DNA of 32,000 nt, taken from Mucisphaera calidilacus. GTDB lineage: Bacteria; Planctomycetota; Phycisphaerae; Phycisphaerales; Phycisphaeraceae. A program made the translations under genes and the position numbers. Below are positions 12,228 through 31,265 of this stretch, one piece after another (position 1 is the stretch's first letter; each line of letters begins with the position of its first letter). The stretch is from contig NZ_CP036280.1 in the NCBI RefSeq assembly GCF_007748075.1, positions 720,001 to 752,000 of the forward strand. Direction: 5' to 3'. The notes beneath the pieces are model-generated. The model worked only from the letters and a program-made list of their open reading frames with translations, was not told where the DNA came from and made no database searches.

Positions 12228-13616
12228 ATGACCACCCGCACCATCACAACCATGGCCGCACTCAGCACCTTCATGCTGGCATCCGCCGCCAGCGCCAACC
12301 TCGCCCTGCTCAACTTCGACGACGGCACCACCGGCCCGTTCTACAACGCCGGCGGCTTCACCAGCAGCGGCATCGGCGATCCCAAGCCCGTGCTCTCGGT
12401 CGCCGACGACACCGCCGGCCTCGGCTCAGGCAACGCACTCTTTGTCGAGTCCAAGGGTGCCGGCAGCGAGCTCTACGCCCTGCTCGACAACCCCGTAAGC
12501 CTCAACGACCTCGGCGACAAGATCGTCATCCAGCTCGACTGGCGCCTCGACACCACCACCAGCTCGCAGCCCGACTCCAGCTCCGCCGACTTCCGCTTCG
12601 GCATCTTTAACGACGATGACAACTCCATCGGCCAGGTCTTCGGCCAGAAGCCCGTCTTCGACGAGTTCGGCGACCCCGTCTTCGAAGGCGAAGACCAGCT
12701 TTTTGAAGACGCCATCTTCGGACAGACCGGCGGTGACTTCGACGGTGCCAACGGACCCATCGACCCCGATTTCGGCATTCACGTCCGCACCGCTTTCAAC
12801 AAGAACGTCGCGGACCCGAACACGCCCGACGCCCTGACCGACGTCCGCGTCCGCACCGAATCCTGGTTCGATCTCGGTGGCATCCTCTCAGGTTCCGGCA
12901 ACACCATCGTCACCGGCAACGACCTCGAAGAGGGCGGCACCAACTGGGGCGCACTCCGCGACGGTTCCGCCAACACCATCAAGCTCACCCTCGAACTCAC
13001 CAACGAGACGCTGCCCGACCAGACCGAGCCGGAGGACGCCTACCGCGCCACCCTCGAAGTCACCAACGCCCTCGGCACCTCGGTCTTCTCCAACCGCGAC
13101 CCGATCTCCCAGCTCGAGTTCAGCACCTTCCACTACATGGTCTTCGAAGACGCCAACGACGACTTCGACTACGTCATCGACAACCTCTCCGTCACCGCCA
13201 TCCCCGCCGGCAGCGGACTCACCGGCGACTTCAACTCCGACGGCGTCGTTGACGCGGCCGACGTCGACCTCCTCGCCGAGGCGATCCGTACCGGCTCCTC
13301 CGACCCGCAGTTCGACCTCGACGGGCAGAACGGCGTCGACAACGGCGACCTCACCGAGATGGTCACCGTCGTTCTCGGCACCAACTTCGGCGACGCCAAC
13401 CTCGACCTCAGCGTCGACCTGCTCGACCTCTCGGCCCTCGCCTCCAACTTCAACGCCGTCGCCGGCTGGGCGGGCGGCAACTTCAACACCGACACCGTCG
13501 TCGACCTGCTCGACCTCTCGGCCCTCGCCTCCAACTTCGAGACCGCCGCAGCGCCCGAACCCGCCGCGGCCGGACTCCTGGCCATCGGCGCGCTCGCACT
13601 GATCCGCCGCCGCTGA
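12228..13616 (+). CDS. secreted acidic protein: jelly-roll-like N-domain + dockerin-like repeats + PEP-CTERM anchor
   Basis: GGAGG lies 7 nt upstream of the ATG. Signal peptide '...FMLASAASA'. The N-domain of about 330 aa has unknown function and ends 'FDYVIDNLSV'. From 13224 come four Ca-loop/dockerin-like segments (GDFNSDGVVDAADVDLL; DLDGQNGVDNGDL; GDANLDLSVDLLDLSALASNF; GNFNTDTVVDLLDLSALASNF). PEP-CTERM tail 'PEPAAAGLLAIGALALIRRR' (13554-13613). Confidence 0.8.
   Translation: MTTRTITTMAALSTFMLASAASANLALLNFDDGTTGPFYNAGGFTSSGIGDPKPVLSVADDTAGLGSGNALFVESKGAGSELYALLDNPVSLNDLGDKIVIQLDWRLDTTTSSQPDSSSADFRFGIFNDDDNSIGQVFGQKPVFDEFGDPVFEGEDQLFEDAIFGQTGGDFDGANGPIDPDFGIHVRTAFNKNVADPNTPDALTDVRVRTESWFDLGGILSGSGNTIVTGNDLEEGGTNWGALRDGSANTIKLTLELTNETLPDQTEPEDAYRATLEVTNALGTSVFSNRDPISQLEFSTFHYMVFEDANDDFDYVIDNLSVTAIPAGSGLTGDFNSDGVVDAADVDLLAEAIRTGSSDPQFDLDGQNGVDNGDLTEMVTVVLGTNFGDANLDLSVDLLDLSALASNFNAVAGWAGGNFNTDTVVDLLDLSALASNFETAAAPEPAAAGLLAIGALALIRRR
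13412..13538 (+). repeat. perfect 40-bp direct repeat, 87-bp period, inside the CDS
   Basis: cgtcgacctgctcgacctctcggccctcgcctccaacttc occurs at 13412-13451 and again at 13499-13538 (checked base by base). It encodes VDLLDLSALASNF. Confidence 0.95.
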
Positions 13617-13632
13617 CCGACAACCCCCGCGT

Positions 13633-13656
13633 TCTGCCCGCTCAACGGCGGGCAGA
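13633..13656 (+). terminator. GC-rich stem-loop downstream of the PEP-CTERM gene (no U-tract)
   Basis: tctgcccgc / gcgggcaga form a perfect 9-bp stem with loop tcaacg. No T-run follows, so terminator function is uncertain. Confidence 0.4.
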
Positions 13657-13729
13657 CGCCTTACGGACCTGCGTCCGATCGTGTTAAGTGATTCACGCCC
13701 AAGACTCTTTGCAGAACAGGACGACCATC

Positions 13730-14623
13730 ATGCTGCGCACACGCCAAGGCTTCACACTCATCGAACTGCTGGTGGTGATCTCCATCATCGCCCTGCTGAT
13801 CGGCATCCTGCTCCCCGCTCTCGGTGCCGCACGCAGCACCGCCCGAACCATGTCGTGCAACAGCAATCTCCGACAGATCGGCATCGCACACCAGATCTAT
13901 GGCGTCAACAACAACGGCAACATCGTTCCCTACGCCAAGCTGCCCGACGACCTCAACCAATCTGATGTCTTGTGGTTCGAGATGCTCGCCGAGACCATGA
14001 TGGGTGCGAAACGCGACGCCGACGGCAACCGTGATCAATTCATGCGCGAAACCTTTGCCTGTCCCGCTTTTGATTTTTCCCGTGCAGAGGAATACCAGAT
14101 CGATTTCGGTGGCGGCACAAGCAAGATCGGCTTTGGCATGAACCTCGACCTGCACCGCGACAGCATCTACTGGCGCGAGGCAGGACTTGTCGGTGCCGAG
14201 AAATTCAAATACACCAGCGGTTACATCCCCGTGGCAACGAGACTCGAAAACGCGCAAGGTGATCCAAACTACCCCAGCGTCAATGGCTTCTGGAAGTACG
14301 AGAATATCCCCAGCCAGAGCAACTGGATCCTCAACGGCGACAGCTTCGAGCAACATCTCAAGGTACGCGGTGATGCGGGCGGCAGCAGTGGTACTGGCGA
14401 GATCTATTTTCAAAAGGCACAGGGCTCGGTTGATTATGAGCAACTCAAGCGATGGGAGTCAGGCGAGCCCGACCGCCACGGCTCCGGCGAAGGCAACCAG
14501 CGTGCCAACTATGTCTTTGCTGATGGACACGCCTCGACACTTGGTAAGGAAGAAGCTGCCTTTACTCTCGCCGATCCACTTAACAAGTACCAGCCTGTCT
14601 ATGACGAAGACGAGGGTGGCTGA
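13730..14623 (+). CDS. prepilin-type N-terminal cleavage/methylation domain protein (type IV pilin-like / pseudopilin, DUF1559 / H-X9-DG-related)
   Basis: ATG at 13730 gives the leader 'MLRTRQG|[32 protein letters not shown]'. C-terminal '[21 protein letters not shown]' resembles the H-X9-DG motif, but with a longer spacer. The track ORF start at 13688 is less likely. Confidence 0.85.
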
Positions 14624-14653
14624 GAGCGTTTTCGTATCCTGAACCACCGGGAT

Positions 14654-14687
14654 CGGGCGTCCCACACCTCCGGGACGCCCGTTTCTT
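14654..14687 (+). terminator. intrinsic terminator-like hairpin
   Basis: cgggcgtccc (14654-14663) pairs with gggacgcccg (14672-14681), a perfect 10-bp stem with an 8-nt loop, followed by tttctt. Confidence 0.55.
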
Positions 14688-14713
14688 AAAGCCCCTGACG
14701 GAACTGACCAGGC

Positions 14714-16531
14714 ATGATCGAGATCGCCGTTATCGCGGGTTACCTCCTGCTGCTCGTCACCATCGGTTTTGTCCTCCAGCGGCTCAACAGCGACGTCAGC
14801 GACTACTTCCGAAGCGGCTGCCGCGCCAAGTGGTGGATGGTCGGCTCCAGCGCCTTCATGACCGCCTTCTCCGCGTGGACCTTCACCGGCGGCGCCGGCG
14901 CCGCCTACACCGCCGGACTCTCCGTCACCGTCATCTTCTTCGCCAACGTCCTCGGCTTCCTCATCCAGGCCGCCTTCCTCGCCGGCTGGTTCCGACAACT
15001 CCGCGCCGTCACCTTCCCCGAAGTCCTCCGCGACCGCTTCGGGCACCTCACCCAGCAGTTCTACGCATGGATCACCGTCCCCCTCCAGCTCTGCTACGCC
15101 GCCGTCTGGCTCTGGGGCCTCGCCACCTTCATCTCTTCGGTCTTCGGCTACGACATCAACACCGTCATCCTCGTCACCGGGCTAGTCGTCCTCGTCTACT
15201 CGCTCTTCGGCGGGAGCTGGGCCGTCATGGCCACCGACTTCCTCCAGACCCTCATCCTGATGCCGATCACCATCCTCGTCACCGTGCTCTGCCTCATCGA
15301 GCTCGGCGGCATCACCGGACTCATCGACGGCATCCGCGATGCGGGACTCGCCTCCGACTACGCCATGGTCAACGCACCCGACCGATTCGACAACGAAGAC
15401 TACACGTGGTCATGGCTGTTTGCCGTCGTCGTCTACAAGATCATCAACCACTCCGCCCTTGAAGTCTCCCAGAAGTACTTCGCCGTCAAGGACGGTCGCG
15501 AGGCACGGCAGGCCGCGCTCCTCGCCGCCGTCATGTCATTCGTCGGCGTCTTTATCTGGTTCATCCCGCCCATGGCCGCCGCCATCCTCATCCCCGACCA
15601 GATCGAAGCCCTCTCGCTCAAGAACGCCGCCGAGGGCTCCTACGCCCTCATCAGCATGAACCTCCTCCCCGCGGGCCTCACCGGCGTCATGGTCGTCGCC
15701 ATGTTCTCCGCCACCATGAGCTCCATGGACTCCGGCCTCAACCGCAACGCCGCCATCTTCACCCGCGACATGTACCCCACCCTCAGCCGACTCGTCGGCA
15801 TGGAGCCCGCCGAGGGCAAGGCCCTCCTCCACATCGGGCAGCTCTTTTCCTGCGCCTTCGGCTTCGGCATCATCGCCCTCGCCTACTACTTCGCCCAGTC
15901 CGAGGGCAAGGGCGTCTTCCAGGTCATGCTCGACATCGGCGGCCTCCTCACCCTCCCGATGTTCATCCCGATGCTGCTGGCCATCTTCGTCCGCCACGTC
16001 CCGTGGTGGTCCGCCATCTTCGCCGTCCTCGCCGCCTTCGTGCCCTCCTCCATCGCCTTCCTCTCCGGCAAGTACCCCGAGTACATCGACTGGCTCACGC
16101 CCTACCTGCCCGAGTTCCTCGGCTACATGACCGACGGCAACTGGACCTACGCCCAGAAGATCTTCACCAACACCCTCGTCGGCTCCACCGCCTTCTTCAT
16201 CACCATGCCCTTCTGGCACGGGTCGACCGATGAATACCGCCAGCGTGCCGACGCCTTCTACAAGAAGATGCACACGCCCGTGAACTTCGAGGAAGAGGTC
16301 GGCGAGGCCAACGACGACCACCAGCGACTCGTCGTTGGCGTCTTCGCCGTCGTCATGGGCTCCTTCATCTGCCTGCTGCTCCTGCTGCCCAACGACATCA
16401 AGGGGCGACTCGGCATCCTCTTCGTCGGCGGCTTCGTCCTCACCGCAGGCATCTTCCTGCTCCGCTCCGCACAACGCGCAGCAACCGCTGAGGAACCCCT
16501 AGCGCCCTTCAGGGGAGAAGACAACCCATGA
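14714..16531 (+). CDS. sodium:solute symporter (SSS) family transporter
   Basis: 605 aa with about 13-14 hydrophobic helices. The N-terminus 'IAVIAGYLLLLVTIGFVLQR...DYFRSG' and 'GSWAVMATDFLQ' are typical SSS blocks. Confidence 0.85.
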   Translation: MIEIAVIAGYLLLLVTIGFVLQRLNSDVSDYFRSGCRAKWWMVGSSAFMTAFSAWTFTGGAGAAYTAGLSVTVIFFANVLGFLIQAAFLAGWFRQLRAVTFPEVLRDRFGHLTQQFYAWITVPLQLCYAAVWLWGLATFISSVFGYDINTVILVTGLVVLVYSLFGGSWAVMATDFLQTLILMPITILVTVLCLIELGGITGLIDGIRDAGLASDYAMVNAPDRFDNEDYTWSWLFAVVVYKIINHSALEVSQKYFAVKDGREARQAALLAAVMSFVGVFIWFIPPMAAAILIPDQIEALSLKNAAEGSYALISMNLLPAGLTGVMVVAMFSATMSSMDSGLNRNAAIFTRDMYPTLSRLVGMEPAEGKALLHIGQLFSCAFGFGIIALAYYFAQSEGKGVFQVMLDIGGLLTLPMFIPMLLAIFVRHVPWWSAIFAVLAAFVPSSIAFLSGKYPEYIDWLTPYLPEFLGYMTDGNWTYAQKIFTNTLVGSTAFFITMPFWHGSTDEYRQRADAFYKKMHTPVNFEEEVGEANDDHQRLVVGVFAVVMGSFICLLLLLPNDIKGRLGILFVGGFVLTAGIFLLRSAQRAATAEEPLAPFRGEDNP

Positions 16532-17970
16532 CCCTCCGCGCCCTGCTCATCCTGTGCGCATGCTGTGTGACAGCCACCGCCGAGATCACACTCCCCGCAC
16601 TCTTCGACGACCACATGGTCCTCCAGCAAGGCAAGCCCCTCGCCGTCTGGGGCCGAGCCGACCCGCGTGCCCAGGTCACGATCGAGATCGACACCCAACG
16701 CGTTACCGCGACCACCGCCGAAGACGGGACCTGGTCCGCCACGCTCGAGCCGCTCGAGGCTGGCAGCGGCTACATGCTCAGAGTCTCGGCCGACGGCCAG
16801 TCGGTTCTCTTTGAGGACGTACTCGTCGGCGAGGTCTGGCTCTGCTCCGGGCAGTCCAATATGGACATGCGGATGGACAAGATGGACCCGAGCGAGATCG
16901 AAGCCGCCGACCACCCCGAGATCCGGCTCTTTCGCGTCGAACGCTCCGCCGTCGTCAAGCCCGCCCGGGACGTCGACGCCGACTGGGAGGTCTGCACGCC
17001 CGAGAACGTCCGCGACTTCAGCGCCGCCGCCTACTACATGGGCCGAGAACTCCAGCAGCACCTCGACGTCCCCGTCGGCCTCATCCACACCGCCTACGGC
17101 GGGACCGCCGCCGAGGCATGGACACGACGCCAGGTCCTCGAGGCAAACCCCATCCTCGTGTCACTCGTCGAACGTTACGAACGGCTCAAGGCCGACCCCA
17201 ACGCCACACCGCCCGAGGCCCGACGCATACCCGGCGGCCTCTACAACGGCATGATCCACCCGCTCGTCCCCTACACCATCCGCGGCTTCGCCTGGTACCA
17301 GGGCGAGTCCAACACCTGGCGCGCCGCCCAGTACAAGACACTCCTGGAGGAGATGATCATCGACTGGCGCACGCAGTGGGGCGACCTCCGACTCCCCTTC
17401 GCCATCGTCCAGCTCCCCGGCTACGTCAACCCGCCACGCGTCCCCGCCGGCATCTACAGCTGGGAAGAACTCCGCGAAGCACAATCCCGCGTCGCCTACA
17501 CCCTCCCCAGCGCCGGGCTCATCGTCACCATCGACGTCGGCGACCCCACCGACATCCACCCCCTCGACAAGCACACGGTCGGCAAGCGCCTGGCAAACTG
17601 GGCGCTCCACACCCTCTACGAGAAAGAGATCTACGGCTTGTCTCCGCGATTCTGGGAGGCAGACTTCAGAAAAGACTCGAACGAGGTCCACCTCAAGTTC
17701 GAGAACGTCGGCACCGGCCTCACCACCCGTGACGGCGGGCCGGTTCGCGGCTTCGTCATCGCCGGCGACGACCGCCGATTCCGCTGGGCGAAAGCCCGCA
17801 TCGAGGGAGACGTTGTGATCGTCTCGGAAGCCAAGGTGAAACAGCCCCGCGCCGTGCGCTACGCCTGGAACGAAAACCCCGACTGGGCCAACCTCGTCAA
17901 CAACGAGGGCTTGCCCGCCTCACCCTTCCGCACCGATCGCTGGCCCGGCATCACCGACAAGGCTCGCTGA
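16528..17970 (+). CDS. sialate O-acetylesterase-like carbohydrate esterase (GQSNM / DUF303 family)
   Basis: Start overlaps the symporter stop (ATGA at 16528-16531). Signal peptide present. 'LPALFDDHMVLQQGKPLAVWG' and the catalytic 'VWLCSGQSNM' motif. Confidence 0.85.
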   Translation: MTLRALLILCACCVTATAEITLPALFDDHMVLQQGKPLAVWGRADPRAQVTIEIDTQRVTATTAEDGTWSATLEPLEAGSGYMLRVSADGQSVLFEDVLVGEVWLCSGQSNMDMRMDKMDPSEIEAADHPEIRLFRVERSAVVKPARDVDADWEVCTPENVRDFSAAAYYMGRELQQHLDVPVGLIHTAYGGTAAEAWTRRQVLEANPILVSLVERYERLKADPNATPPEARRIPGGLYNGMIHPLVPYTIRGFAWYQGESNTWRAAQYKTLLEEMIIDWRTQWGDLRLPFAIVQLPGYVNPPRVPAGIYSWEELREAQSRVAYTLPSAGLIVTIDVGDPTDIHPLDKHTVGKRLANWALHTLYEKEIYGLSPRFWEADFRKDSNEVHLKFENVGTGLTTRDGGPVRGFVIAGDDRRFRWAKARIEGDVVIVSEAKVKQPRAVRYAWNENPDWANLVNNEGLPASPFRTDRWPGITDKAR

Positions 17971-17990
17971 GACAACAGGAGAATCACACG

Positions 17991-20354
17991 ATGACACGAT
18001 GGTTGGTTCGAACATCCTGTATCTGCGTGATGGTGTCCGTCGCCTCCGCCGAGACCTTCTTCGTCTCCTCCGCCGCCCAGATCGAAGACGCCATGGACAA
18101 CGCAGCTCCGGGCGACACGCTCGTCATGACCGACGGCGTCTGGAACAACCAGAGCATCGACTTCGCCGGCCACGGCACCGCCGACAACCCCATCACCCTC
18201 CGCGCCCAGTCGGCAGGCGGTGTCATCCTCACCGGATCCTCCAACCTCAGCATCTCCGGCTCACACCTCGTCGTCGACGGACTCACCTTCAACGAAGGGC
18301 GTCCCAGCGGCAGCCACATCATCCGATTCACCGGCTCCCAGGGCGACGCCAACCACAGCCGACTCACCAACACCACCATCACCAACTACAACCCCGCCGA
18401 CATCAACGACCGCTACTTCTGGGTCTCCCTCTACGGGCAGGACAACCGCGTCGATCACTCGCGCTTCCAGGGACAGAACCACTCAGGCGTCACCCTCGTC
18501 GCATGGCTCGACGGCGACGAGGCGCGGCACCGGATCGACCACAACCACTTCGCCGACCGGCCCGAGGGCAACGGCAACGGCTTCGAGACCATCCGCATCG
18601 GCACCAGCGAGTTCGGCGACTCCAGCGCCAAAGTGATCGTCGAGAACAACCTCTTCGAACGCGTCGACGGCGAAGTCGAGATCATCTCCAACAAGTCCAA
18701 CGACAACATCTACCGCTACAACACCTTCGCCGAGTCCAAGGGAACCCTCACCCTCCGACACGGACACCGCGCCAACGTCGAGGGCAATTTCTTCCTCGGC
18801 AAGAACAAGGACGGCAGCGGGGGGGTCCGCGTCATCGGCGAAGACCACCAGATCATCAACAACTACTTCGCCGACCTCGACGACCGCATGGACGGCGTCA
18901 TCTCCATCACCGCCGGCATCGAGAACACGCAGCCCAGCGGCTACCAGCAGGTCAAGAACGCACTGATCGCCCACAACACCATCATCGACGCCGAGATGCC
19001 CGGCATCACCTTCGACTGGGGCCTTGGCGAGCGCGACCGAACCCTCCTCGCCGAAGACGTCATCATCACCGGCAACCTCATTCTCAGCTACGCCGACACC
19101 CTCTTCGAGGGCAACGAGGGCCCCGGCTGGACCTGGTCCGACAACCTCGTCTGGGGCGCCCCGACCGGCATCACCGCCCGCCCAGGCGTCACCGTCGCCG
19201 ACACCTTGTTGCAACTGGCACCCGACGGCCTCTGGCGACCCGCCGCCAACAGCCCCGCCATCGACGCCATCGCCCAGGCCAACCTCGTCACCCCCATCGA
19301 CATGGACGGCCAGCCACGCATCGGGCTTATCGACATCGGAGCCGATGAAGTCGCCGACGCCGCCATCGTCCGCAAACCCCTCACCAGCAACGACGTCGGA
19401 CCCGACTGGGACAACTACGAGCCCATCGACCCCGGCGGTCCGGGCGACCCCACCGACCCGCCCGCCGGCGCTCACATCGCCATCGAGGCCGAACAGTTCG
19501 CCTCCGTCATCGACCCCAACAGCGACGGCGACACGTGGACCGTCGTCGCCGCCCACGACGCCTTCGGCGGCTTGGCCATCGAAGCACCCCAGGGCGACCG
19601 CTACAACAGCGGGTCTGGCGCTCATGACGCCATCGTGACCTACGACCTCACCTTCGACGAGGCCGGCAACTACACCGCCTACTACCGCGCACGAGGCTTC
19701 AGCGGGTCCACCGACAGTTTCTATCACCCGGACGCGCTGGATCAGGACCCCGATCAGAACGAAACCACCTCCAGTAACGGCGGATGGCTCTGGGAGACCG
19801 GCGAAACCTTCACCATCACCGACAGCCACCTCGACGTCCCCCTCGAACTCCGCCTCGGCAAACGCGAACAAACCACCCAGATCGACGCCATCATCCTCCA
19901 CATCAACAACGGCCTCACACCCGGTGAACTCGACGCGTTGATGACACGCATCTACGAACCGCTCTCAGGTGACTTCAACAGCGACGGTGTTCTCGACGCC
20001 GCCGACCTCGAACTCGTTCAAATCGCTATCGGAACAACAGACACCACCTACGACCTCGACGACAACGGCATCGTCGACGCCGCCGACACCCACGCATGGC
20101 TCATCGACGCCTACGGCACCATCCTTGGCGACATCAACCTCGACCGCGTCGTCGACCTGCTCGACCTCTCGATCCTCGCTGCGAACTTCCAGACCACCGG
20201 TCTGGCCCTCTACACCCTCGGCGACATCACCGTCGATCAGACCGTTAACCTTCTCGATCTCTCGATCTTTGCCAGCAACTTCGGGTCCGCTGCGACCATC
20301 CCCTCCCCCTCCACCGGATTCTTCCTGCTCTGCACCGGGCTGCTCCGACGCTGA
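17991..20354 (+). CDS. multidomain polysaccharide lyase family 6 (alginate / poly-uronate lyase) + CBM6/35-like + dockerin-like repeats + IPSP C-terminal tail
   Basis: AGGAG lies 9 nt upstream of the ATG. Signal peptide present. The parallel beta-helix carries PL6 catalytic blocks 'GFETIRIG', 'VEIISNKSNDN' and 'GTLTLRHGH'. A P/D-rich linker 'DPGGPGDPTDPP' follows, then 'IAIEAEQF...GNYTAYYRARG' (CBM6/35-like). From 19968 come dockerin-like segments. The tail is 'IPSPSTGFFLLCTGLLRR' (20298-20351). Confidence 0.85.
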   Translation: MTRWLVRTSCICVMVSVASAETFFVSSAAQIEDAMDNAAPGDTLVMTDGVWNNQSIDFAGHGTADNPITLRAQSAGGVILTGSSNLSISGSHLVVDGLTFNEGRPSGSHIIRFTGSQGDANHSRLTNTTITNYNPADINDRYFWVSLYGQDNRVDHSRFQGQNHSGVTLVAWLDGDEARHRIDHNHFADRPEGNGNGFETIRIGTSEFGDSSAKVIVENNLFERVDGEVEIISNKSNDNIYRYNTFAESKGTLTLRHGHRANVEGNFFLGKNKDGSGGVRVIGEDHQIINNYFADLDDRMDGVISITAGIENTQPSGYQQVKNALIAHNTIIDAEMPGITFDWGLGERDRTLLAEDVIITGNLILSYADTLFEGNEGPGWTWSDNLVWGAPTGITARPGVTVADTLLQLAPDGLWRPAANSPAIDAIAQANLVTPIDMDGQPRIGLIDIGADEVADAAIVRKPLTSNDVGPDWDNYEPIDPGGPGDPTDPPAGAHIAIEAEQFASVIDPNSDGDTWTVVAAHDAFGGLAIEAPQGDRYNSGSGAHDAIVTYDLTFDEAGNYTAYYRARGFSGSTDSFYHPDALDQDPDQNETTSSNGGWLWETGETFTITDSHLDVPLELRLGKREQTTQIDAIILHINNGLTPGELDALMTRIYEPLSGDFNSDGVLDAADLELVQIAIGTTDTTYDLDDNGIVDAADTHAWLIDAYGTILGDINLDRVVDLLDLSILAANFQTTGLALYTLGDITVDQTVNLLDLSIFASNFGSAATIPSPSTGFFLLCTGLLRR

Positions 20355-21464
20355 TCAGCGCCAACGCGTCAGCAACAGCGTCATCAGCAGCGAAGCTGCG
20401 CTCGTCGGGCTCGGGATCCGCGTGCTGTTGAAGTTGCTCGCCAGCAGCGACAGGTCCAGTAGACCGACCACGCCGTCGCCATCGAAGTTCCCGTCATGCC
20501 ACGACCCCGGCTGCCCGAAGTTCGACGCCAGCGTCGACAGATCCGTCAGGTTGACCGCGTAATCCAGATTCGTGTCGCCCGGCAACGCCATCGGCCGCCA
20601 GTCGGTCGAAAGGACGAGGTTATCGAAGTAGAAATACTCTTCCTTCGTCGTCGCGAAGTTCATCGAACTTCCCCCGTAGAACGTCTCGAAACGGAACACG
20701 TCGATCTGCAAACCGGGCACGTCACGAAACCGGATGTCATCCACATAGAAAACCGGCTCGCCGTTCACCCACGCCTGCACAACCCCGTCGTGCTCGCCCG
20801 GCGTGTTCATCACCACGCGGTGCTGAATGTGATACCACGGACCCGACGTCACCTCGACCCACCGCCCGTCGTGCGTCTCGTCGTAGAAACGCGTGTCGCC
20901 ATACGTCTGCGGCTGGTCCGGGTGATAGAGGTACTGATTCAGGTTCGCCGACGTCGTCGGCACCTGCGACCCGTCCTTCCCGTTCGAACTCCAGGTCATC
21001 CGCGCACTGAACCCGTCGGTGCCGTCCGGCTTGTTCCCGCCGGTGTTCGCCTCACCACCCGCCAGCCCCGGCAGCTTGCCCGCACGCACAAACTCCGTCC
21101 CCGGACCGAAGTGCACCCAGTACGAGGCGTACAGCTCCTCGTACCCCCGGTCCAACTCCATGATCCACTTGCCCCCCAGCTTGATGTCCTCGCCCACGTG
21201 CATCACCCGAAGCGACCGACCCGAAAACGCCTCCGCATCGTCCACGACCGCAACGCGCCCCTCACTCACCCCGTCCTCCCACGGCGCATCAAAGTCCGCG
21301 GCGAGCATCTGCGTCGTATAAGCACCCGCGCTGTGCTGGTTGAAATCATTCGAATAGATCACCTCACCCGACGCGGCCGCCGTGCCAACCAAGAGGCTCA
21401 GACCCGCAACCGCAAACGACACGCCTTGGTACATCCAGAAGACTCCATCCACGAACGACATCAA
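20355..21464 (-). CDS. PL14-like polysaccharide lyase (Pfam Polysacc_lyase-type jelly roll) + dockerin-like repeats + IPSP C-terminal tail
   Basis: 'YASYWVHFGPGTEFVRAGKLPGLAGGE', 'GFSARMTW' and 'VQAWVNGEPV' match my recollection of the GKLPGL-motif lyase family (PL14 / heparin-lyase-I-like fold). C-terminus is 'GDTNLDYAVNLTDLSTLASNF...GNFDGDGVVGLLDLSLLASNFNSTRIPSPTSAASLLMTLLLTRWR'. Start is ambiguous (ATG at 21464, 21461 or 21434). Confidence 0.6.
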   Translation of the reverse strand: MMSFVDGVFWMYQGVSFAVAGLSLLVGTAAASGEVIYSNDFNQHSAGAYTTQMLAADFDAPWEDGVSEGRVAVVDDAEAFSGRSLRVMHVGEDIKLGGKWIMELDRGYEELYASYWVHFGPGTEFVRAGKLPGLAGGEANTGGNKPDGTDGFSARMTWSSNGKDGSQVPTTSANLNQYLYHPDQPQTYGDTRFYDETHDGRWVEVTSGPWYHIQHRVVMNTPGEHDGVVQAWVNGEPVFYVDDIRFRDVPGLQIDVFRFETFYGGSSMNFATTKEEYFYFDNLVLSTDWRPMALPGDTNLDYAVNLTDLSTLASNFGQPGSWHDGNFDGDGVVGLLDLSLLASNFNSTRIPSPTSAASLLMTLLLTRWR

Positions 21465-21531: not shown

Positions 21532-22389
21532 TCAACGACGACGAAGCATCAGGGCACCCACACTCAGCAGGGCCAGGCTCGCCGGCTCGGGAACGATGTC
21601 ATCACCCGTACGCAGGATGATGTTGTCGAAGTAGACGTCCGGGTCCACGTCGCCGTTCGACGAACCGAGCAGGCCGAATCGCTGCAGACCCTCGGCAGGA
21701 TCATAATTGCCGCTCGCCTTGAGCAGCGTGAAGCCCAGGCCGTTCGCCTTCGAGGCGTCGTCGTTGAAGAGCACGCCATCAATGAACACGTCGTAGCTCT
21801 GAGCCGCAAGGCTGCGTGTCTCGCCGAACAGCGTGTAGTCGTAGTTGCCACTCACCGCCGCGTTACCGACGATCGTCACGTCCACCACGCCGTCCAGCGG
21901 CTCGGTGCTGTCGGTCTTGAATTCGTCATCGGTGTTCTCGTACTTCGCCGTGATCTCCTTGTCCGCCTGCCACGAAAGCGAGAACGCAACACGCGACTCG
22001 GACGTGATGCTGTCGCCCGCGTTGCCCATCCGGAAACGGATCGCCTTGCTCGTGCCGTTGGTGCTGGCGTTGAACGACTCGAAATCAACCCGGAACGGTC
22101 CGGTCAGCGGGTTGGCCAGTTCGCCCTGCAACTCCGGTTTGTCGCCGTTGTAGAAGTCCCACATCCGCATCGCGTTGCCGTCGTTGAAAGGCGAAGGCGG
22201 GCTGGTGATGGCATCAAGGATCTCGATGCCGTAATCGTTGACCCCATCCCCGGCATCCACGTTCTGATTGAAAACGTCTCCGAGTTCCGCAACCGTCGCC
22301 TCGGTGTACAGGGGGATCACGTCCGCCGCCGCAACCGAGAACGCACCAAACGTAACCATAGCGCCAATCAGGGTTTTCATTTGCTTCAT
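21532..22389 (-). CDS. secreted PEP-CTERM protein of unknown function (jelly-roll / LamG-like suspected)
   Basis: GGAGG is upstream of the ATG. Signal peptide 'MKQMKTLIGAMVTFGAFSVAAA'. Ends 'VYFDNIILRTGDDIVPEPASLALLSVGALMLRRR' (PEP-CTERM). Confidence 0.75.
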   Translation of the reverse strand: MKQMKTLIGAMVTFGAFSVAAADVIPLYTEATVAELGDVFNQNVDAGDGVNDYGIEILDAITSPPSPFNDGNAMRMWDFYNGDKPELQGELANPLTGPFRVDFESFNASTNGTSKAIRFRMGNAGDSITSESRVAFSLSWQADKEITAKYENTDDEFKTDSTEPLDGVVDVTIVGNAAVSGNYDYTLFGETRSLAAQSYDVFIDGVLFNDDASKANGLGFTLLKASGNYDPAEGLQRFGLLGSSNGDVDPDVYFDNIILRTGDDIVPEPASLALLSVGALMLRRR

Positions 22390-22513: not shown

Positions 22514-22534
22514 CGCCTTTTCAACACGACACGC

Positions 22535-25702
<3,168 letters not shown>

Positions 25703-25841: not shown

Positions 25842-27062
25842 CTACCGCGTGAACGCAAGATCCATCCACACCAGACGGTGATCCGACGTCTCGATCAGAT
25901 CCTCAAGCGGATGAAGCGGCGCCGGCCAGAAAACACCCGCACGACGGATCTTCATCGCCTTCGACGGCAGCACGTAATCGACACGCAGGTTCCCCGGACC
26001 GCCGAAGTCCGCCGTGTCGTATCGAGCCTCACCCCGATGCCGCTCATTCGCACGACCCTCTCGCTCCGCATCCAGTTCCGCGCCTCGGCTGCTCGGCGTC
26101 ACCGACGTGTTCACACGCGGATGCTTCAGCAACTGATTCACCGCACCCTGCGTCGAGTCGCCGTCGAACGGGTCCGCATTCATATCACCCAGAATCACGA
26201 AGTTCGTCCCGTCCGCCAGCCCCCCGCGACGCCCCGCATCGTCACGGATGTACCCACTCTCCTGAAAGGAAAGATAGTCCGACCAGAAACGAATCTCGTC
26301 ATGGTTCCGCCGGCCGTTGCGATCCTCGCGCCCGTCAAACACAGGCGGCGTCGGATGACTCACCAGCAGGTGCACGATCCGCCCGTGAATCCACACCGGC
26401 AGATCCACGTGCGTCTTCGACGACAAGCGGAAGTGCTCCTGCACCTCCTCGCTGTAGTAATCACCCGGTGCTTCCGTCGAGGCGTCATCAGGCAGCAACG
26501 CCCCCGGCATGTCCTTCCACAGGAAGTTCTGGAACGTCCGCGCGTGCGTGATCCGCAATTCATGCCGCGACAGCACCACGAAACCGTAGTGACCCGGGAA
26601 ACGACCGTACCCGTAGGCGTCCTGCGGCAGCGTCCGCTTCCCATCGCCATTGATATCCACCTCAGCCAGACGCCCGGTATTGACCTCCGGCGCATAGCTG
26701 TACGGGTACTGGATCGGCTCCTGACCCGACTGAGGGCGGTGCAGGTAGAACTCCATGAAGATACGCAGGGCTTCGCCGCGTCGATCACGGTCAAACTCAT
26801 TGATCAGCACAACGTCCGGACGAACCCGCTGAAGGATCTCCGCAGCACGCCTCGCGCCCGGATCTTTGCCCGTCCGAAGATCGTCGAGCATCTGCCCCGA
26901 AGGCTCGCGACTCAGCGAAGCATTGAACGTTGCCACCCGGAAATGAGGCCGCTCACCCTCGCCCGACACCACCCCCGCAGGCCCTGGAACCGGCTGAGCG
27001 GAAGCCCAACTCGCCACGCTCAGGACCACGCAGACCACGGTAAATCTCATCAGCTTGCCCAT
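25842..27062 (-). CDS. secreted endonuclease/exonuclease/phosphatase (EEP) family protein
   Basis: The ATG at 27062 has GGGAGG 9 nt upstream, whereas the ATG at 27071 abuts that SD. Signal peptide 'MGKLMRFTVVCVVLSVASWASA'. EEP blocks 'FRVATFNASL', 'VVLINEFD', 'FVILGDMNADP' and 'SDHRLVWMDL'. Confidence 0.8.
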   Translation of the reverse strand: MGKLMRFTVVCVVLSVASWASAQPVPGPAGVVSGEGERPHFRVATFNASLSREPSGQMLDDLRTGKDPGARRAAEILQRVRPDVVLINEFDRDRRGEALRIFMEFYLHRPQSGQEPIQYPYSYAPEVNTGRLAEVDINGDGKRTLPQDAYGYGRFPGHYGFVVLSRHELRITHARTFQNFLWKDMPGALLPDDASTEAPGDYYSEEVQEHFRLSSKTHVDLPVWIHGRIVHLLVSHPTPPVFDGREDRNGRRNHDEIRFWSDYLSFQESGYIRDDAGRRGGLADGTNFVILGDMNADPFDGDSTQGAVNQLLKHPRVNTSVTPSSRGAELDAEREGRANERHRGEARYDTADFGGPGNLRVDYVLPSKAMKIRRAGVFWPAPLHPLEDLIETSDHRLVWMDLAFTR

Positions 27063-27367
27063 GTTATCCATCCTCCCAAAAAACTTCGGAACCGGGCCAA
27101 AAGACCATTTTAACTAGACTGGCCGTCGTAAGGGACACAAAACACAACATGTGGATACCAAGCCCATTGGCGCTACGTTAGCCTTGTGTTTGCTCACCGT
27201 TTCCTAACATAACGGGCACGATTTCTCTGGATTCACCCCTCAAATGGGTGTAGATTGCCCGTGCGGGAGCTCTTGTTTGCGCCCGCTCTGCACGGTCCCG
27301 ACCCGGAATTCAAGGAGAGTTCCGGGCCTGCCACATGTGTTCACCCAACTACGGAGGATTTGAGAAG

Positions 27368-28075
27368 ATGCGTACTTTTACCCTTGCCGCCGCCGCCTCG
27401 CTGGCTCTTGCCGGTGCTGCCTCGGCCGACCTGATCATCTCGGAAATCGTCGACGGCCCGCTCTCGGGCGGCACCCCGAAGTTCGTCGAACTGACCAACA
27501 CCGGCAACGCCCCCGTTGACCTCGCCAACTACAGCCTCGGCAACATCAACAACGGCGCCACCACCATGGGCTTCGACGCCCTGGTCCTCTCCGGCATCCT
27601 CGCCGCCGGCGACTCCTACGTCGTCTCCTACGAGAACAGCGACGCCCCGGGCGCCAGCGTCTTCTTCGACGTCTACAGCTTCGACGCCGACAACCTTGAG
27701 AACGGCTCGTTCATCAACGGCGACGACGTCCTCGTCCTCTTCTCCGGTGCCGGCCTCGCCGGTGACCCCGGCAACGGCGCGAACGTCGTCGACGTCTTCG
27801 GCGTCGTGGGCGTCAACGGCGACAACGAGCCCTGGGACTACACCGACAGCTACGCCGTCCGCGTCCCCACCTCCATCACCGCCAACGGTGGTGTCTTCAA
27901 CGTCGCCGACTTCGTCTACGGCGGCCGTGACGGACTCGAGGGCGCCGATGACGCCGCCGAGACCCTCAACCTCCAGATCTTCACCTCGCCCGGCACCCAC
28001 GCCTTCATCCCCGAGCCCGCCTCGCTCGCGATGATCGCTCTCGGCGGCCTGGCCCTCGTCCGCCGCTCGGCCTGA
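27368..28075 (+). CDS. lamin-tail-domain (LTD) protein with PEP-CTERM anchor
   Basis: GGAGG lies 9-10 nt upstream of the ATG at 27368. Signal peptide present. LTD-like 'LIISEIVDGPLSGGTPKFVELTNTGNAPVDLANYSL...GDSYVV...DVLVLF...VVDVFGV...WDYTDSYAVR'. Tail is 'IPEPASLAMIALGGLALVRRSA'. Confidence 0.7.
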   Translation: MRTFTLAAAASLALAGAASADLIISEIVDGPLSGGTPKFVELTNTGNAPVDLANYSLGNINNGATTMGFDALVLSGILAAGDSYVVSYENSDAPGASVFFDVYSFDADNLENGSFINGDDVLVLFSGAGLAGDPGNGANVVDVFGVVGVNGDNEPWDYTDSYAVRVPTSITANGGVFNVADFVYGGRDGLEGADDAAETLNLQIFTSPGTHAFIPEPASLAMIALGGLALVRRSA

Positions 28076-28125
28076 TACGGCAGACGCAGCCATCATTTGA
28101 ATGATGGGTAAATCTTGCTATACTC

Positions 28126-28157
28126 GAGGGTGAGCCTCAACGGGCTCACCCTCTTTT
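28126..28157 (+). terminator. intrinsic terminator after the LTD gene
   Basis: gagggtgagcc (28126-28136) pairs with ggctcaccctc (28143-28153), a perfect 11-bp stem with loop tcaacg, followed by TTTT. Confidence 0.75.
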
Positions 28158-28312
28158 ACCGGATGCTGCGTCCGGTCGCCGCCCGGTACGGATGCCGGAG
28201 GCCAACGCAGCGGCGTGTGAGACGCCAGCACCCACACGGTCTGGCAACTCGGCGTGGCAGGGGACAAGGCGCGTTCGCTACACTCCCCTGTACCCCTCAC
28301 GGAGACACTCCC

Positions 28313-29335
28313 TTGACCAACACCACCGACACACGACCCAGCCGGGCCGCCGGCTTCACCCTGATCGAACTCCTCGTCGTGATCTCGATCATCGCGCTGC
28401 TCATCGGCATCCTCCTCCCGGCACTCGGCGCGGCACGTGACACCGCGCGAACCGCCATCGATCTCGGCAACCTACGCTCAATTTCCCAAGGGATGTTCAG
28501 CTACAGCATCAGCAGCAAGAGTTTTCTACCCGGCCCCAACACCTCCGGTGCCCACATCACCGCCGGCTACAGCGACTGGCGACAGTCCAGCACCGAACCA
28601 ACCCAGAACATGGACTGGATCTCGCCGCTCTTCGGCCACGCGCTGGGCCTCTCCGAAGACCGGGGCGATCGTCTCGACGACATCTTCAACAACGAATTCC
28701 GCTGCCCCTCCAACACCGAAACCTACAACGGAGCCGTCTTCGACGCCGGGGGTGTGGGCGACGTCGACTACGAGAACTTCACCGTTTCCAGCTACTCCTC
28801 ACCGCTCGCCTTCCACCTCTGGGGCGACAACACCGGGGCCAACGTCCCGCTCAAGCACGGCACAGTCGCCAGCCGGGGTAACCCGCCGCCCGCAGCCGAG
28901 GCCATCTCGCTCGACCCGGGCTACAAGGGCACCGTCGATTCGGTCGGTTCCAACAGCGAAAAAGTCTTCGCGCTCGACGGCACACGTTACGTTGACGGCG
29001 ACGGAACCGTCACCTACAGCGGAACGCCTCGCGTCTTCCAGGGCGGCAACTTCATGGTCAGCGGACCCGCCTTCGCCGACCCCGGCGGCTCCCCCTACAA
29101 GTACAACGTCACCGGACCCGGCAAGACCGAACTGACCGACCTTGCCAAACGCTACGCCTACCGCCACGCCGGTCGACTCAACACCACCTTCTTCGATGGC
29201 CATGCCAAATCCATGGACAAGGAGACGGCCCAGACCGTCGACTACTTCCTGCCCACCGGCTCCGTCATCGTCAACCGCAGCGCCACACGCGACAGCCGCA
29301 CACCCTTCATCGAAAACGGATACGTCGTCAAGTGA
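28313..29335 (+). CDS. prepilin-type N-terminal cleavage/methylation domain protein with canonical H-X9-DG motif (DUF1559-like)
   Basis: No ATG is available. TTG at 28313 has GGAGA 8-12 nt upstream and gives 'MTNTTDTRPSRAAG|[32 protein letters not shown]'. The C-terminal 'RHAGRLNTTFFDGHAKSM' is exactly H-X9-DG. The track extension to 28115 crosses the terminator and is rejected. Confidence 0.8.
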   Translation: MTNTTDTRPSRAAGFTLIELLVVISIIALLIGILLPALGAARDTARTAIDLGNLRSISQGMFSYSISSKSFLPGPNTSGAHITAGYSDWRQSSTEPTQNMDWISPLFGHALGLSEDRGDRLDDIFNNEFRCPSNTETYNGAVFDAGGVGDVDYENFTVSSYSSPLAFHLWGDNTGANVPLKHGTVASRGNPPPAAEAISLDPGYKGTVDSVGSNSEKVFALDGTRYVDGDGTVTYSGTPRVFQGGNFMVSGPAFADPGGSPYKYNVTGPGKTELTDLAKRYAYRHAGRLNTTFFDGHAKSMDKETAQTVDYFLPTGSVIVNRSATRDSRTPFIENGYVVK

Positions 29336-29396
29336 CGACGTTTTTTGAATGTTTCGGTACCACGCCACTCACTCGATCCACACAGGAGAGAAGTTC

Positions 29397-31265
29397 ATGA
29401 AGACCGCACGCCTGCTTCAGGCCACCCTCGCCCTCACGGCCATCACCACGGCCGCCAACGCCGTCCAGTTGCCCACCGGCGGGTTTATCGCCGTGGGTGA
29501 CGTCGGCAACGCCACCGCGACCTCCGACACCGTCACCTTCTACAGCACCGACGACCTCAGCTCACGCCTCTTCTCGGTCGCGCTCCCCTTCGAGAGCGCC
29601 TCCAACAACGAGGACTTCGACGCCCTTACCGTCAACCCCTTCACAGGCGAGGTCTATGTCACCGCCGTTGACTCGGGCACCCCCGGCACCGTTGTCACCA
29701 CCACCGACCTGCAGACCAACGTCCAGGACACCGATGGCGACCTCGACCTCTACCGCATCGACTTCGCCGCCTTCTACAACGACTGGGTCAACAACCAGAA
29801 CATGGCCGACGTGACCTACCACGCCGAGCAGAATGACAGCTTCTTCGGCGACCCCGTCTTCTCCGGCGCCCCCAACCCCATTCAGGCCACCGGCGACCTC
29901 GGCACCAACGGCATCCAGAAGATCGGCGAGATCGCCCGGTCCCAGACCTTCCGCAGCAATACCAGTGATATCTTCAACAAGTCCCTCGCCTTCATCGACG
30001 ACGATACCCTCGTCTACCTTGATGAGGACACCGACACCTCCGGCAGCGTCGCTGCTGATCACGAGATCCGCCTCATCAAGCGCATCTCCGGACCCGCCAG
30101 CTACGACAGCAACACCAACGAGGGCGGCTTCAACAGCAACACCGCCGAGTCATGGACCTCCACCATCGTCGGCCGCGTCCTGCTCGATGGCGACACCAAC
30201 GCCTCCGAACCCCGCACCATCGCCGGATACAAGGACCCCCAGTCGGGCGTCACCGGCGTCTGGGTCCTCGAGGGTGACGGCGGCGGCGACGATATCGGCT
30301 TCTTCGAAATCGTCGATGAGTCCGGCGACGACAACGGCCCCGGCGGCTCCAACCTCAACGGCTACCGTCTCGCCACCACCGGCTTGCCCGTCTTCGCACT
30401 CGATAACGACCCCGCGAACGACCCCACCACCAACGACGGCTCCGGCGACCGCGTCCTGGTCAACCCCGTCACCGGTGACCTGATCATCATGGAGTCCGGC
30501 TTCTTCGACAGCCCCCAGCACGAGCCCTCCGTCATCCAGCGCGAGGTCGTCGACTACGACGCCTCCGGCGAAATCCTCTTCGGTGCATGGTCGCCCCTCC
30601 TGCAGATCGACGGCAACCAGCCCGGCGACGACGACACCCAGATCGTCGACGGACGCTACACCGCATACGACCACATCAACAACGTCCTCTACTACCACGA
30701 TCGTGATAACCCCTTCAGCGGCGGCGGCGGCAGCTACGACGGCGACTGGTGGTCCATCAATCTCACCACCGGCGAGACAAAGCTCGAAGCCACCGACGTC
30801 GGCAACTTCCAGATCTACGACAACGGCACCTTCCTCGGCTTCTTCTCCTTCGACCAGGTCGGCATCGAGGGCGACTACGACAACGACGGCGAACTGACCG
30901 ACGCCGACGTCGACCTCCTCGTCAACGCCATCCTCGCCGGCTCCACCGACCTCACCTACGACGCCAACAGCGACGGCGTGGTCGACGCCAACGATTACAT
31001 CCTCTGGCGCGATAGCCTCTACGGCACCACCGCCGGCGACGCCAACCTCGACTTCGTCGTCGACCTCCTCGACCTCTCCCTCCTCGCCTCCAACTTCGAC
31101 GGCCCCGGCCTCCACGGCGAAGGCGACTTCAACGCCGACGGACTGGTCGACCTCCTCGACCTCTCCCTCCTCGCCTCCAACTTCGACACCGGCAACGTCC
31201 CCGAGCCCGCAGGCCTCGCACTGCTCGGTCTCGGTGCCGCCGCCATGCTCCGCCGTCAGGCCTGA
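29397..31265 (+). CDS. large acidic secreted protein (possible beta-propeller) + dockerin-like repeats + PEP-CTERM anchor
   Basis: AGGAG lies 8 nt upstream of the ATG at 29397. Signal peptide 'MKTARLLQATLALTAITTAANA'. Recurring strand-like motifs 'VNPFTGEVYV', 'VNPVTGDLII' and 'INLTTGETKL'. From 30870 come four dockerin-like loops. Tail is 'VPEPAGLALLGLGAAAMLRRQA' (31200-31262). Confidence 0.75.
   Translation: MKTARLLQATLALTAITTAANAVQLPTGGFIAVGDVGNATATSDTVTFYSTDDLSSRLFSVALPFESASNNEDFDALTVNPFTGEVYVTAVDSGTPGTVVTTTDLQTNVQDTDGDLDLYRIDFAAFYNDWVNNQNMADVTYHAEQNDSFFGDPVFSGAPNPIQATGDLGTNGIQKIGEIARSQTFRSNTSDIFNKSLAFIDDDTLVYLDEDTDTSGSVAADHEIRLIKRISGPASYDSNTNEGGFNSNTAESWTSTIVGRVLLDGDTNASEPRTIAGYKDPQSGVTGVWVLEGDGGGDDIGFFEIVDESGDDNGPGGSNLNGYRLATTGLPVFALDNDPANDPTTNDGSGDRVLVNPVTGDLIIMESGFFDSPQHEPSVIQREVVDYDASGEILFGAWSPLLQIDGNQPGDDDTQIVDGRYTAYDHINNVLYYHDRDNPFSGGGGSYDGDWWSINLTTGETKLEATDVGNFQIYDNGTFLGFFSFDQVGIEGDYDNDGELTDADVDLLVNAILAGSTDLTYDANSDGVVDANDYILWRDSLYGTTAGDANLDFVVDLLDLSLLASNFDGPGLHGEGDFNADGLVDLLDLSLLASNFDTGNVPEPAGLALLGLGAAAMLRRQA
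31059..31187 (+). repeat. perfect 42-bp direct repeat, 87-bp period, inside the CDS
   Basis: gtcgacctcctcgacctctccctcctcgcctccaacttcgac occurs at 31059-31100 and 31146-31187 (checked base by base). It encodes VDLLDLSLLASNFD. Confidence 0.95.

Follow-up and report, generated by a model that had tools for sequence, protein, structure and literature searches.

We analysed 32,000 nucleotides of the genome of the marine planctomycete Mucisphaera calidilacus (contig NZ_CP036280.1, positions 720,001 to 752,000; here called the window), in which the genes of two pilin-like proteins (13730-14623 and 28313-29335) lie next to genes of exported proteins that end in a PEP-CTERM tail. This pairing is real and beyond chance. 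A first-pass annotation, made from the sequence alone, had correctly taken the genome for that of a PVC-like diderm (the organism belongs to the Phycisphaerae, Planctomycetota) and had combined these genes into a single surface-display system over 19 kb. The region instead contains two unrelated loci, each with its own synteny: locus 1 (5273-21464, beside a LacI regulator) and locus 2 (25842 to beyond 32000). The 19 kb are not one system because 25842-32000 is a separate, independently syntenic nuclease/phosphoesterase cluster. Both loci follow one plan that is seen in several Phycisphaerae loci and comprises a regulator, Sec-exported PEP-CTERM binding proteins and enzymes, one locus-specific pilin-like protein, and a sodium:solute symporter (SSF) and/or further enzymes. 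We propose, tentatively and with slightly less than even confidence, that the pilin-like proteins are substrate-specific subunits of a capture fibre, which would work together with surface-sorted lectins and lyases.

Pairing of pilin-like and PEP-CTERM genes

The plus-strand part of locus 1 runs from the LacI regulator to a lectin-like PEP-CTERM protein (here called X), the first pilin-like protein, an SSF symporter, a SASA-type esterase and a PL6 lyase. This order, with a PL7 lyase added after the symporter in some loci and with the same divergent catabolic genes, recurs in Mucisphaera sp., in Algisphaera agarilytica and in three metagenomic contigs. The closest relatives of pilin-like protein 1 that we examined (41-51% identity) are encoded between an X ortholog and an SSF gene in five of five contigs. 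The pilin pairing of locus 2 also recurs, in the related loci L009 and L010.

The frequency of the pairing was determined in a metagenome-assembled genome (MAG) of Mucisphaera sp., referred to as the sister genome. A scan with the profile of the dockerin/PEP-CTERM cassette described below gave 41 loci, all from this one MAG, and two further loci were fetched from the same contig; together they make up 784 kb and 587 genes (called with our own gene caller), or 24% of the genome. Fifteen of the 22 pilin-like genes in this sample directly adjoin a tail- or cassette-bearing gene; the mean in within-region gene shuffles was 8.0, and 21 of 20000 shuffles reached the observed number. Counted from the other side, a pilin-like gene is the neighbour of 22 of the 99 tail-bearing genes versus 8.7 expected, a number reached in none of the 20000 shuffles. 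The permutation test is conservative, because the regions were selected as rich in cassette genes. The synteny in five contigs and the enrichment in the sister genome bear out the earlier observation that the pilin-like genes adjoin dockerin/PEP-CTERM genes, and show the link to be non-random.

A same-strand triad recurs, consisting of a small PEP-CTERM protein (216-274 aa), a pilin-like gene and a larger dockerin/PEP-CTERM protein. Further contexts come from another Phycisphaeraceae MAG and an unassigned metagenomic contig (L134-L136). A GH94/GH16 cluster contains a pilin-like gene in L134, and in L136 the pilin-like gene lies between genes for a dockerin protein and a trypsin-dockerin protein. 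The order in L135 (5001-11091) is GntR regulator, dockerin/PEP-CTERM protein, pilin-like gene, SSF, Peptidase_M15 and ROK, adjoining Amidase_3, a beta-lactamase-like gene and NAGPA; this module appears to be built for muropeptides or amino sugars. Positions 1400159-1420563 of Mucisphaera sp. hold a paralogous module like that of L135, and the gene sizes match across both genomes.

Outside the Phycisphaerae (L054-L133), six or seven of 49 pilin-like genes are followed by a gene for a lipoprotein of 120-170 aa with a G(K/T)V..DG(Q/K)P motif; others are followed by sulfatases or by Gfo/Idh/MocA enzymes with a TAT signal. The contexts suggest a general rule of a pilin-like gene with an exported partner, the type of partner differing by lineage.

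The pilin-like proteins

All 22 window genes were covered by the Pfam scan and ten of them by the NCBIfam scan. Both pilin-like proteins carry the prepilin signal G/FTLIE (the slash marks the predicted cleavage site), with N_methyl scores of 30.4 and 30.7 bits (cut-off 21.2) and TIGR02532 scores of 29.3 and 23.3 bits (cut-off 16.3); the F, T, L, I and E of this site are invariant across 77 relatives. The first-pass annotation had called both genes H-X9-DG genes. Their prepilin type and their position beside tailed genes stand; the family assignment needs correction, as both score below the cut-off of 19 bits of the H-X9-DG model TIGR04294 (13.1 and 14.9 bits) and the C-terminal motif of pilin-like protein 1 is H-X14-DG, that of pilin-like protein 2 being an exact H-X9-DG. 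By these scores, the two proteins are relatives of the H-X9-DG family and not model-level members. The 268-position DUF1559 model (PF07596, SBP_bac_10) matches pilin-like protein 1 over profile positions 2-27 only (25.0 bits, cut-off 23.3) and gave no match for pilin-like protein 2. None of the relevant papers that we found mentions H-X9-DG.

The AlphaFold2 (AF2) model of pilin-like protein 1 (pLDDT 87.7) has a helix over residues 10-60 and a 240-residue alpha/beta head. A Foldseek search of the head against the PDB returned no match (best E=2.3). Compared with solved pilins, the profile of the family aligns over the alpha1 helix only, with filament-forming type IV pilins at 1.9e-11 and with GspG at 0.049. 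Across genera, orthologous heads align over their full length with 35-58% identity. Paralogous heads, those of pilin-like proteins 1 and 2 included, do not align beyond short motifs (E no better than about 1e-3). Synteny ties each pilin-like gene to its locus in different genera, and the head is specific to that locus.

Downstream of the orthologous alginate operon in L003, positions 14256-20816 encode an ECF-type sigma factor, a second DUF1559 pilin-like protein, a 164-aa uncharacterised protein, PilM and PilN; pilus-assembly genes can therefore sit close to such loci.

PEP-CTERM tails and the double-dockerin cassette

Six proteins of the window, judged by eye to have Sec-type signal peptides, end in the tripartite PEP-CTERM layout of P-x-P, hydrophobic helix and basic cluster. 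The tail is of the [AVI]PEP type in the proteins encoded at 12228-13616, 27335/27368-28075 and 29349/29397-31265 on the plus strand and at 21532-22389 on the minus strand. The tails of the PL6 and PL14 lyases read IPSP and matched none of the PEP-CTERM HMMs. With TIGR02595 (cut-off 16) the tails scored 18.6, 18.1, 15.5 and 14.5 bits, two above and two below the cut-off, and with Pfam PF07589 (cut-off 20.7) they scored 22.6, 19.6 and 16.8 bits, one above and two below. The earlier count of six proteins with a PEP-CTERM-type tail is therefore correct as to layout, with four [AVI]PEP and two IPSP tails and borderline HMM scores. The tail is shared between enzymes and non-catalytic binding proteins, as had been proposed: both the lyases and X, which has a lectin fold in its AF2 model, carry it.

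Paralogs of the tail are numerous, with 91 tail-bearing genes in the sampled 24% of the sister genome. The Pfam scan of the 22 window genes found no cohesin, exosortase or SusC/SusD-type protein, in agreement with the earlier statement that the window has no cohesin-like or exosortase gene. No exosortase was recognised among 17 polytopic membrane proteins of the sampled sister-genome regions, which by eye are ordinary transporters or lipid enzymes.

Four of the tailed proteins, including both lyases, had been described as having two to four dockerin-like segments before the tail, and our counts agree: four Ca-loop segments in X, four in PL6, two in PL14 and four in the protein encoded at 29349/29397-31265. 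The Pfam model Dockerin_1 (PF00404, cut-off 22.9) is passed by PL6 (24.0 bits), and the others score below it (19.7, 19.6 and 15.5 bits). An alignment of paralogous tails reveals a fixed cassette of 135 residues that is composed of a canonical dockerin (segments 1-2), a divergent dockerin (segments 3-4; motif GDANLDxxVDLLDLSxLASNF) and the PEP-CTERM tail. The best PDB matches of the cassette profile are solved dockerins, with values of 1.4e-6 to 5e-4 for the first module (A); the second (B) matches scaffoldin dockerins weakly (0.02). These matches show the modules to be genuine homologs of dockerins.

The full cassette (E<=1e-30) was found in 207 of 1.84 billion representative proteins, in most cases at the very C-terminus. 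In M. calidilacus it is carried by at least 22 proteins, and in the Mucisphaera group it often precedes the tail as a double dockerin of fixed length; paralogous copies are 50-70% identical. Some very large proteins (2100-6600 aa; P0227, P0232, P0258 and P0341) have the cassette repeated or in an internal position, with up to 16 matched stretches, so that a role as C-terminal anchor does not apply in every case.

Locus 1, a predicted alginate or polyuronate utilisation locus

Four catabolic genes lie at the minus-strand end of locus 1. By Pfam, they encode an enolase-superfamily dehydratase (5273-6517), a TIM-barrel protein resembling xylose isomerase and other sugar isomerases (6519-7391), a Gfo/Idh/MocA oxidoreductase (7457-8536) and an aldo/keto reductase (8543-9535), and their order is identical in L001, L002, L003 and L006. 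They are followed by the gene of an exported alginate lyase (PF05426, 277 bits; 9574-10821, minus strand), which is divergent from the regulator gene and syntenic in the orthologous loci. The LacI-family regulator (11047-12144; Pfam LacI and Peripla_BP_3) is the first gene of the plus-strand unit, a position that is conserved. The unit continues with X (12228-13616), composed of a signal peptide, a lectin-like domain, four dockerin segments and the PEP-CTERM tail; pilin-like protein 1 (13730-14623), in the same operon in five contigs; the SSF symporter (14714-16531, 139 bits), which always follows the pilin-like gene in the orthologous loci; a SASA-type carbohydrate esterase that probably removes O-acetyl groups (16528-17970, 72.9 bits); and the PL6 lyase (17991-20354; Chondroitinase_B 296.7 bits), which has two dockerin modules. 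Two minus-strand genes converge on this unit. One encodes the PL14 lyase (20355-21464; Polysacc_lyase_14 112.3 bits), with one divergent dockerin module of two segments, and the other an exported protein of 285 aa (21532-22389) with no recognised fold, a VPEP tail (the one that scores 18.6 bits with TIGR02595) and no dockerin. The PL6 and PL14 genes converge without a spacer, and their stop codons abut at 20354/20355 (20352-20357).

We assign locus 1 to the utilisation of alginate or a related polyuronate because it combines PL6, PL14 and PF05426 lyases, an acetylesterase, a lectin-fold PEP-CTERM protein, a pilin-like protein, an SSF symporter, a uronate-type catabolic set and a LacI regulator. 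Orthologous alginate loci often add a PL7 lyase. The SASA esterase would fit an O-acetylated substrate.

The N-terminal beta-sandwich of X (approximately residues 24-325) resembles L-type lectins and ConA in its AF2 model, which is of moderate quality (pLDDT 64, core 70-90). The top Foldseek matches are all lectins; L-type lectins, the lectin domains of SasG and SraP, and calreticulin are matched with E=2.5e-7 and weaker.

A GC-rich hairpin followed by a U-tract (14654-14681, plus strand) separates the pilin-like gene from the symporter gene. Hairpins are found at the same position in L001 (10823-10929), L004 (3426-3527) and L006 (10856-10965), so that four loci including the window have one; the stem in L001 (Mucisphaera sp.) is similar to that of the window, and those in L004 and L006 differ from it in sequence. 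A second GC-rich hairpin lies 3' of X (about 13629-13659). The hairpin at 14654-14681 may terminate transcription within the operon or stabilise the RNA. Through such hairpins, the transcripts of X and the pilin-like gene would be more abundant or more stable than those of the enzymes further downstream. An intergenic search for a shared LacI operator palindrome found only AT-rich imperfect palindromes in the divergent promoter (10918-10951) and nothing 5' of X, the pilin-like gene or SSF.

Locus 2, a nuclease/phosphoesterase cluster

Locus 2 begins with the gene of an exported endonuclease/exonuclease/phosphatase (EEP; 25842-27071, minus strand, 94.9 bits), which is divergent from the other genes of the locus. 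Its product is 59% identical to the syntenic ortholog, and the gene is also present in L008 and L010. The plus-strand genes start with a lamin-tail-domain (LTD) protein that ends in an IPEP tail (27368-28075, start at 27335 or 27368; LTD 55.5 bits) and resembles the N-terminus of the extracellular nuclease ExeM (1.6e-12 for the ExeM-like region). Pilin-like protein 2 (28313-29335; 57% identity to its syntenic ortholog) is followed by a 622-aa protein (29397-31265, start at 29349 or 29397) that has an uncharacterised N-terminal domain, two dockerin modules (four segments) and a VPEP tail. A pilin-like gene directly precedes the gene of this protein in L008 and L009, and L010 has one within the cluster. 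The last gene, of which the window holds the 5' part (31427-32000), encodes a second exported EEP-like protein, 71% identical over 175 residues to that of the syntenic gene. This fragment has no Pfam match, and its assignment as EEP comes from motifs read by eye; its ortholog is 692 aa long, with a C-terminal part approximately 49% identical over 134 residues to the protein encoded at 29397.

All five genes of locus 2 are syntenic in Mucisphaera sp., with 45-71% identity. Orthologous and related clusters also carry Endonuclease_1 or an alkaline phosphatase. This gene content suggests that the locus scavenges extracellular nucleic acid or phosphoesters rather than a polysaccharide. The acidic polysaccharide that had been suggested as substrate of the whole region is supported for locus 1 (PL6, PL14, PF05426 and SASA, with PL7 in orthologs) and does not fit locus 2 with its nuclease and phosphoesterase genes.

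Gene models and other features of the window

Gene models were obtained with our own codon-based caller; the 22 window genes have coordinates that agree with those of the first-pass annotation. Two codon models were used because the composition of wobble positions varies with the DNA strand. The G+C content of the window is 62-66%, and many open reading frames (ORFs) are spurious. GC skew ranges from -0.05 to -0.25 over the entire window (1-32000), a very strong strand asymmetry. The wobble positions of plus-strand genes are 0.66 C and 0.21 G, and those of minus-strand genes 0.48 G and 0.31 C; the plus DNA strand is therefore C-rich regardless of gene orientation. The sign of the asymmetry flips many times among the sampled 20-kb regions of the sister MAG (L011-L051), which is not a simple two-replichore pattern.

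Between the two loci, a minus-strand gene (22535-25699) encodes a GH2 beta-galactosidase (Pfam) without a signal peptide. This gene is missing from the syntenic blocks of both loci and may belong to neither locus. Two genes at the start of the window are not related to the finding: a polytopic DUF2339 membrane protein of 1039 aa with a long acidic, Pro-rich N-terminal region (1417-4536) and, after it, a small exported fasciclin-domain protein (4599-5195).

A proposed capture fibre and its alternatives

The loci are linked to regulators and specific for a substrate. Their exported lectin-like proteins and lyases share one type of tail, and each locus adds a prepilin-type protein of its own and an importer. 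In the capture-fibre reading, prepilin peptidase would cut the pilin-like protein at the G/F site, and the invariant N-terminal helix with its Glu5 would let the protein enter a shared type-IV-pilus-like fibre as the substrate-specific subunit. The head would bind the polymer or pass it to the lectin-like PEP-CTERM protein. PEP-CTERM lyases, assumed to be held at or near the surface, would cut the polymer, and the SSF symporter would import the cleavage products. The dockerin modules may serve as a Ca-stabilised spacer or bind some other partner, and presumably do not form the link to the pilin. The hairpin after the pilin-like gene in four orthologous loci would fit a higher expression of X and the pilin-like protein. 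Dextran binds to pili-like fibres on the crateriform structures of planctomycetes (PMC5394234), and a review states a "fishing rod" hypothesis with dedicated pilin-like proteins (PMC12078418); the capture-fibre reading fits both.

Several points weigh against this reading. The evidence consists of genomic context and structure prediction throughout. The head of the pilin-like protein has no recognisable carbohydrate-binding fold in the Foldseek comparison with the PDB, and genes for pilus assembly or a secretin are absent from the window. Some PEP-CTERM proteins, e.g., ZepA (PMC10957091), are released into the medium instead of being anchored. The permutation result depends on our own heuristic gene caller and on regions picked for containing cassette genes. 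Only three of 80 random metagenomic pilin loci of the DUF1559 type have a PEP-CTERM ORF nearby; the link between pilin-like and PEP-CTERM genes is lineage-specific and not general to the pilin-like family. The small lipoproteins, sulfatases and TAT-signal oxidoreductases that adjoin pilin-like genes elsewhere would fit a secretory or periplasmic role equally well.

The pilin-like protein could be a cargo-specific pseudopilin, i.e., the adaptor through which each locus recruits its neighbouring exported proteins to a type-II-secretion-like machine for passage across the outer membrane. The head would then recognise a protein cargo and not a polymer, and locus-specific heads suit the one as well as the other. 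The variety of exported proteins encoded next to pilin-like genes (PEP-CTERM proteins here; lipoproteins, sulfatases and TAT-signal enzymes in other Planctomycetota) agrees with such a role, as does the name "type II secretion system protein" that NCBI gives to the pilin-like proteins, and such an adaptor would supply a route for PEP-CTERM proteins across the outer membrane. However, the family profile favours filament-forming type IV pilins over GspG, known type II systems have one fixed set of pseudopilins and not dozens of cargo-specific ones, and X, PL6, PL14 and the 285-aa protein of locus 1 share a single pilin-like gene. We consider this explanation unlikely but not negligible.

The prepilin-type helix might instead anchor a binding or scaffold protein in the inner membrane, with a periplasmic head that binds oligosaccharides and feeds them to the adjacent SSF symporter in the manner of a solute-binding protein. 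The symporter gene is directly 3' of the pilin-like gene in locus 1, in four complete orthologous loci and in the module shared by L135 and Mucisphaera sp. (Msp_1400159), and the Pfam family is named SBP_bac_10. Against this, the AF2 model matches no periplasmic binding protein or any other PDB entry, only two of the 22 pilin-like genes in the sister genome have transporter neighbours and that of locus 2 has none, and the invariant Glu5 and G/F site are tied to filament assembly in type IV pilins. A periplasmic role of this kind seems quite improbable.

The first-pass annotation had suggested that the dockerin-like modules make Ca-dependent contacts, possibly on a pilin-like fibre; docking onto the pilin-like proteins themselves or onto a hidden cohesin would produce a cellulosome-like assembly on the fibre. 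Solved dockerins are the top PDB matches of the modules, other Phycisphaerae have been proposed to form a cohesin/dockerin "planctosome" (PMC6461901), and 13 of the 22 pilin-like genes in the sister genome neighbour a dockerin-bearing gene versus 5.8 expected. However, the number of dockerin segments in orthologs of X is four, two or zero, yet all of these orthologs retain the N-terminal domain, the PEP-CTERM tail and a neighbouring pilin-like gene, and PEP-CTERM proteins without a dockerin (the LTD protein and several of the 216-274 aa proteins) also pair with pilin-like genes. Because of these two observations docking is unlikely to explain the pairing. Moreover, a conserved dockerin is unlikely to recognise each head, because the cassette is 50-70% identical among paralogs whereas paralogous pilin heads are unalignable, and the 22 window genes include no cohesin. 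We give dockerin-mediated assembly on the fibre very little weight. Chance adjacency of two abundant paralog families (22 pilin-like and approximately 99 tail- or cassette-bearing genes in the sample, and more than 7900 relatives of the pilin-like query) is scarcely credible, as shuffled gene orders almost never reach the observed adjacency and orthologous pairs are syntenic across genera at 35-58% identity.

The capture-fibre reading could be extended to the whole lineage, although we regard the extension as doubtful. The dozens of divergent DUF1559/H-X9-DG-type paralogs of the Phycisphaerae would be the substrate-recognition subunits of "fishing-rod" fibres, each encoded in the locus for one polymer (alginate, beta-glucan, muropeptide, DNA or protein) and regulated along with it. 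With lectins and enzymes sorted by an exosortase and with an SSF symporter, these subunits would define a class of polymer utilisation loci that is independent of SusC/D.

Planctomycetota are major degraders of marine polysaccharides and lack the SusC/D uptake system, and their families of pilin-like paralogs are very large. The gene arrangement described here may show how such bacteria catch polymers without the usual outer-membrane uptake genes. Conserved operons under the control of a regulator connect individual pilin-like genes with particular substrates and give each of them a defined partner, which makes questions of planctomycetal polymer capture, fibre composition and the role of the pilin-like paralogs testable. 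Tests on alginate could start with the head of pilin-like protein 1 (13730-14623), the lectin domain of X (12228-13616), PL6 and PL14. The dockerin-dockerin-PEP-CTERM cassette marks the exported enzyme set of the lineage and could guide enzyme discovery.

Comparison with known systems

The PL6 and PL14 lyases, PEP-CTERM tails, dockerins and DUF1559-type prepilins are already known, and NCBI annotates them as such. We found no earlier description of a locus-specific pilin-like gene that is conserved inside Phycisphaerae catabolic operons. We also found no description of the fixed dockerin-dockerin-PEP-CTERM cassette in the papers searched, none of which contains both "dockerin" and "PEP-CTERM".

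The closest work on fibres concerns dextran-binding fibres and the "fishing rod" (PMC5394234; PMC12078418), with which our loci share a planctomycetal lineage without SusC/D, the capture of polymers at the surface (proposed here) and a postulated role of pilin-like proteins. That work was done on Planctomycetia and the fibre subunits were never identified, whereas here candidates in Phycisphaerae come from genomic context. The DUF1559/H-X9-DG families of the PVC group (PF07596, TIGR04294) have the same G/FTLIE signal, a C-terminal His...Asp-Gly and large numbers of paralogs. In contrast to them, both proteins of the window fall short of the TIGR04294 cut-off and the motif of one is H-X14-DG; the neighbours here are PEP-CTERM proteins, whereas in other lineages they are small lipoproteins, sulfatases or oxidoreductases.

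PEP-CTERM/exosortase sorting (Haft et al. 2006, PMC1569441) likewise involves a tripartite tail on proteins with a Sec signal peptide and many paralogs per genome. Here, however, the tail is fused to CAZymes and dockerins, it occurs in catabolic and not in EPS loci, and two of the tails have PSP in place of PEP. Cellulosomal type I dockerins and the "planctosome" of the Nemodlikiaceae (PMC6461901) have duplicated segments of Ca-loop and helix, C-terminal on enzymes, and an LTD protein in their context. Unlike these, the window has no cohesin or scaffoldin, a fixed pair of one canonical and one divergent (VDLLDLSxLASNF) dockerin is fused directly to a membrane-sorting tail, and the number of segments varies freely among orthologs. 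The system resembles a cellulosome or a "planctosome" only in having dockerins.

Bacteroidota polysaccharide utilisation loci (PULs) are also regulated, substrate-specific clusters with surface binding proteins, surface enzymes, an importer and downstream catabolism. In contrast to PULs, neither the window nor the syntenic loci encode a TonB-dependent SusC or a SusD (Pfam); the PEP-CTERM tail replaces the lipoprotein anchor, the importer is an inner-membrane SSF symporter, and each locus has a pilin-like gene, which the PULs of Bacteroidota do not. Alginate systems of marine bacteria (lyases of the PL6, PL7 and PL17 types, a transporter and DEH catabolism) match locus 1 in their enzyme set, divergent catabolic genes and local repressor. 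In the loci described here, however, the lyases carry the dockerin/PEP-CTERM cassette, and a lectin-like protein and a pilin-like gene are added to the set.

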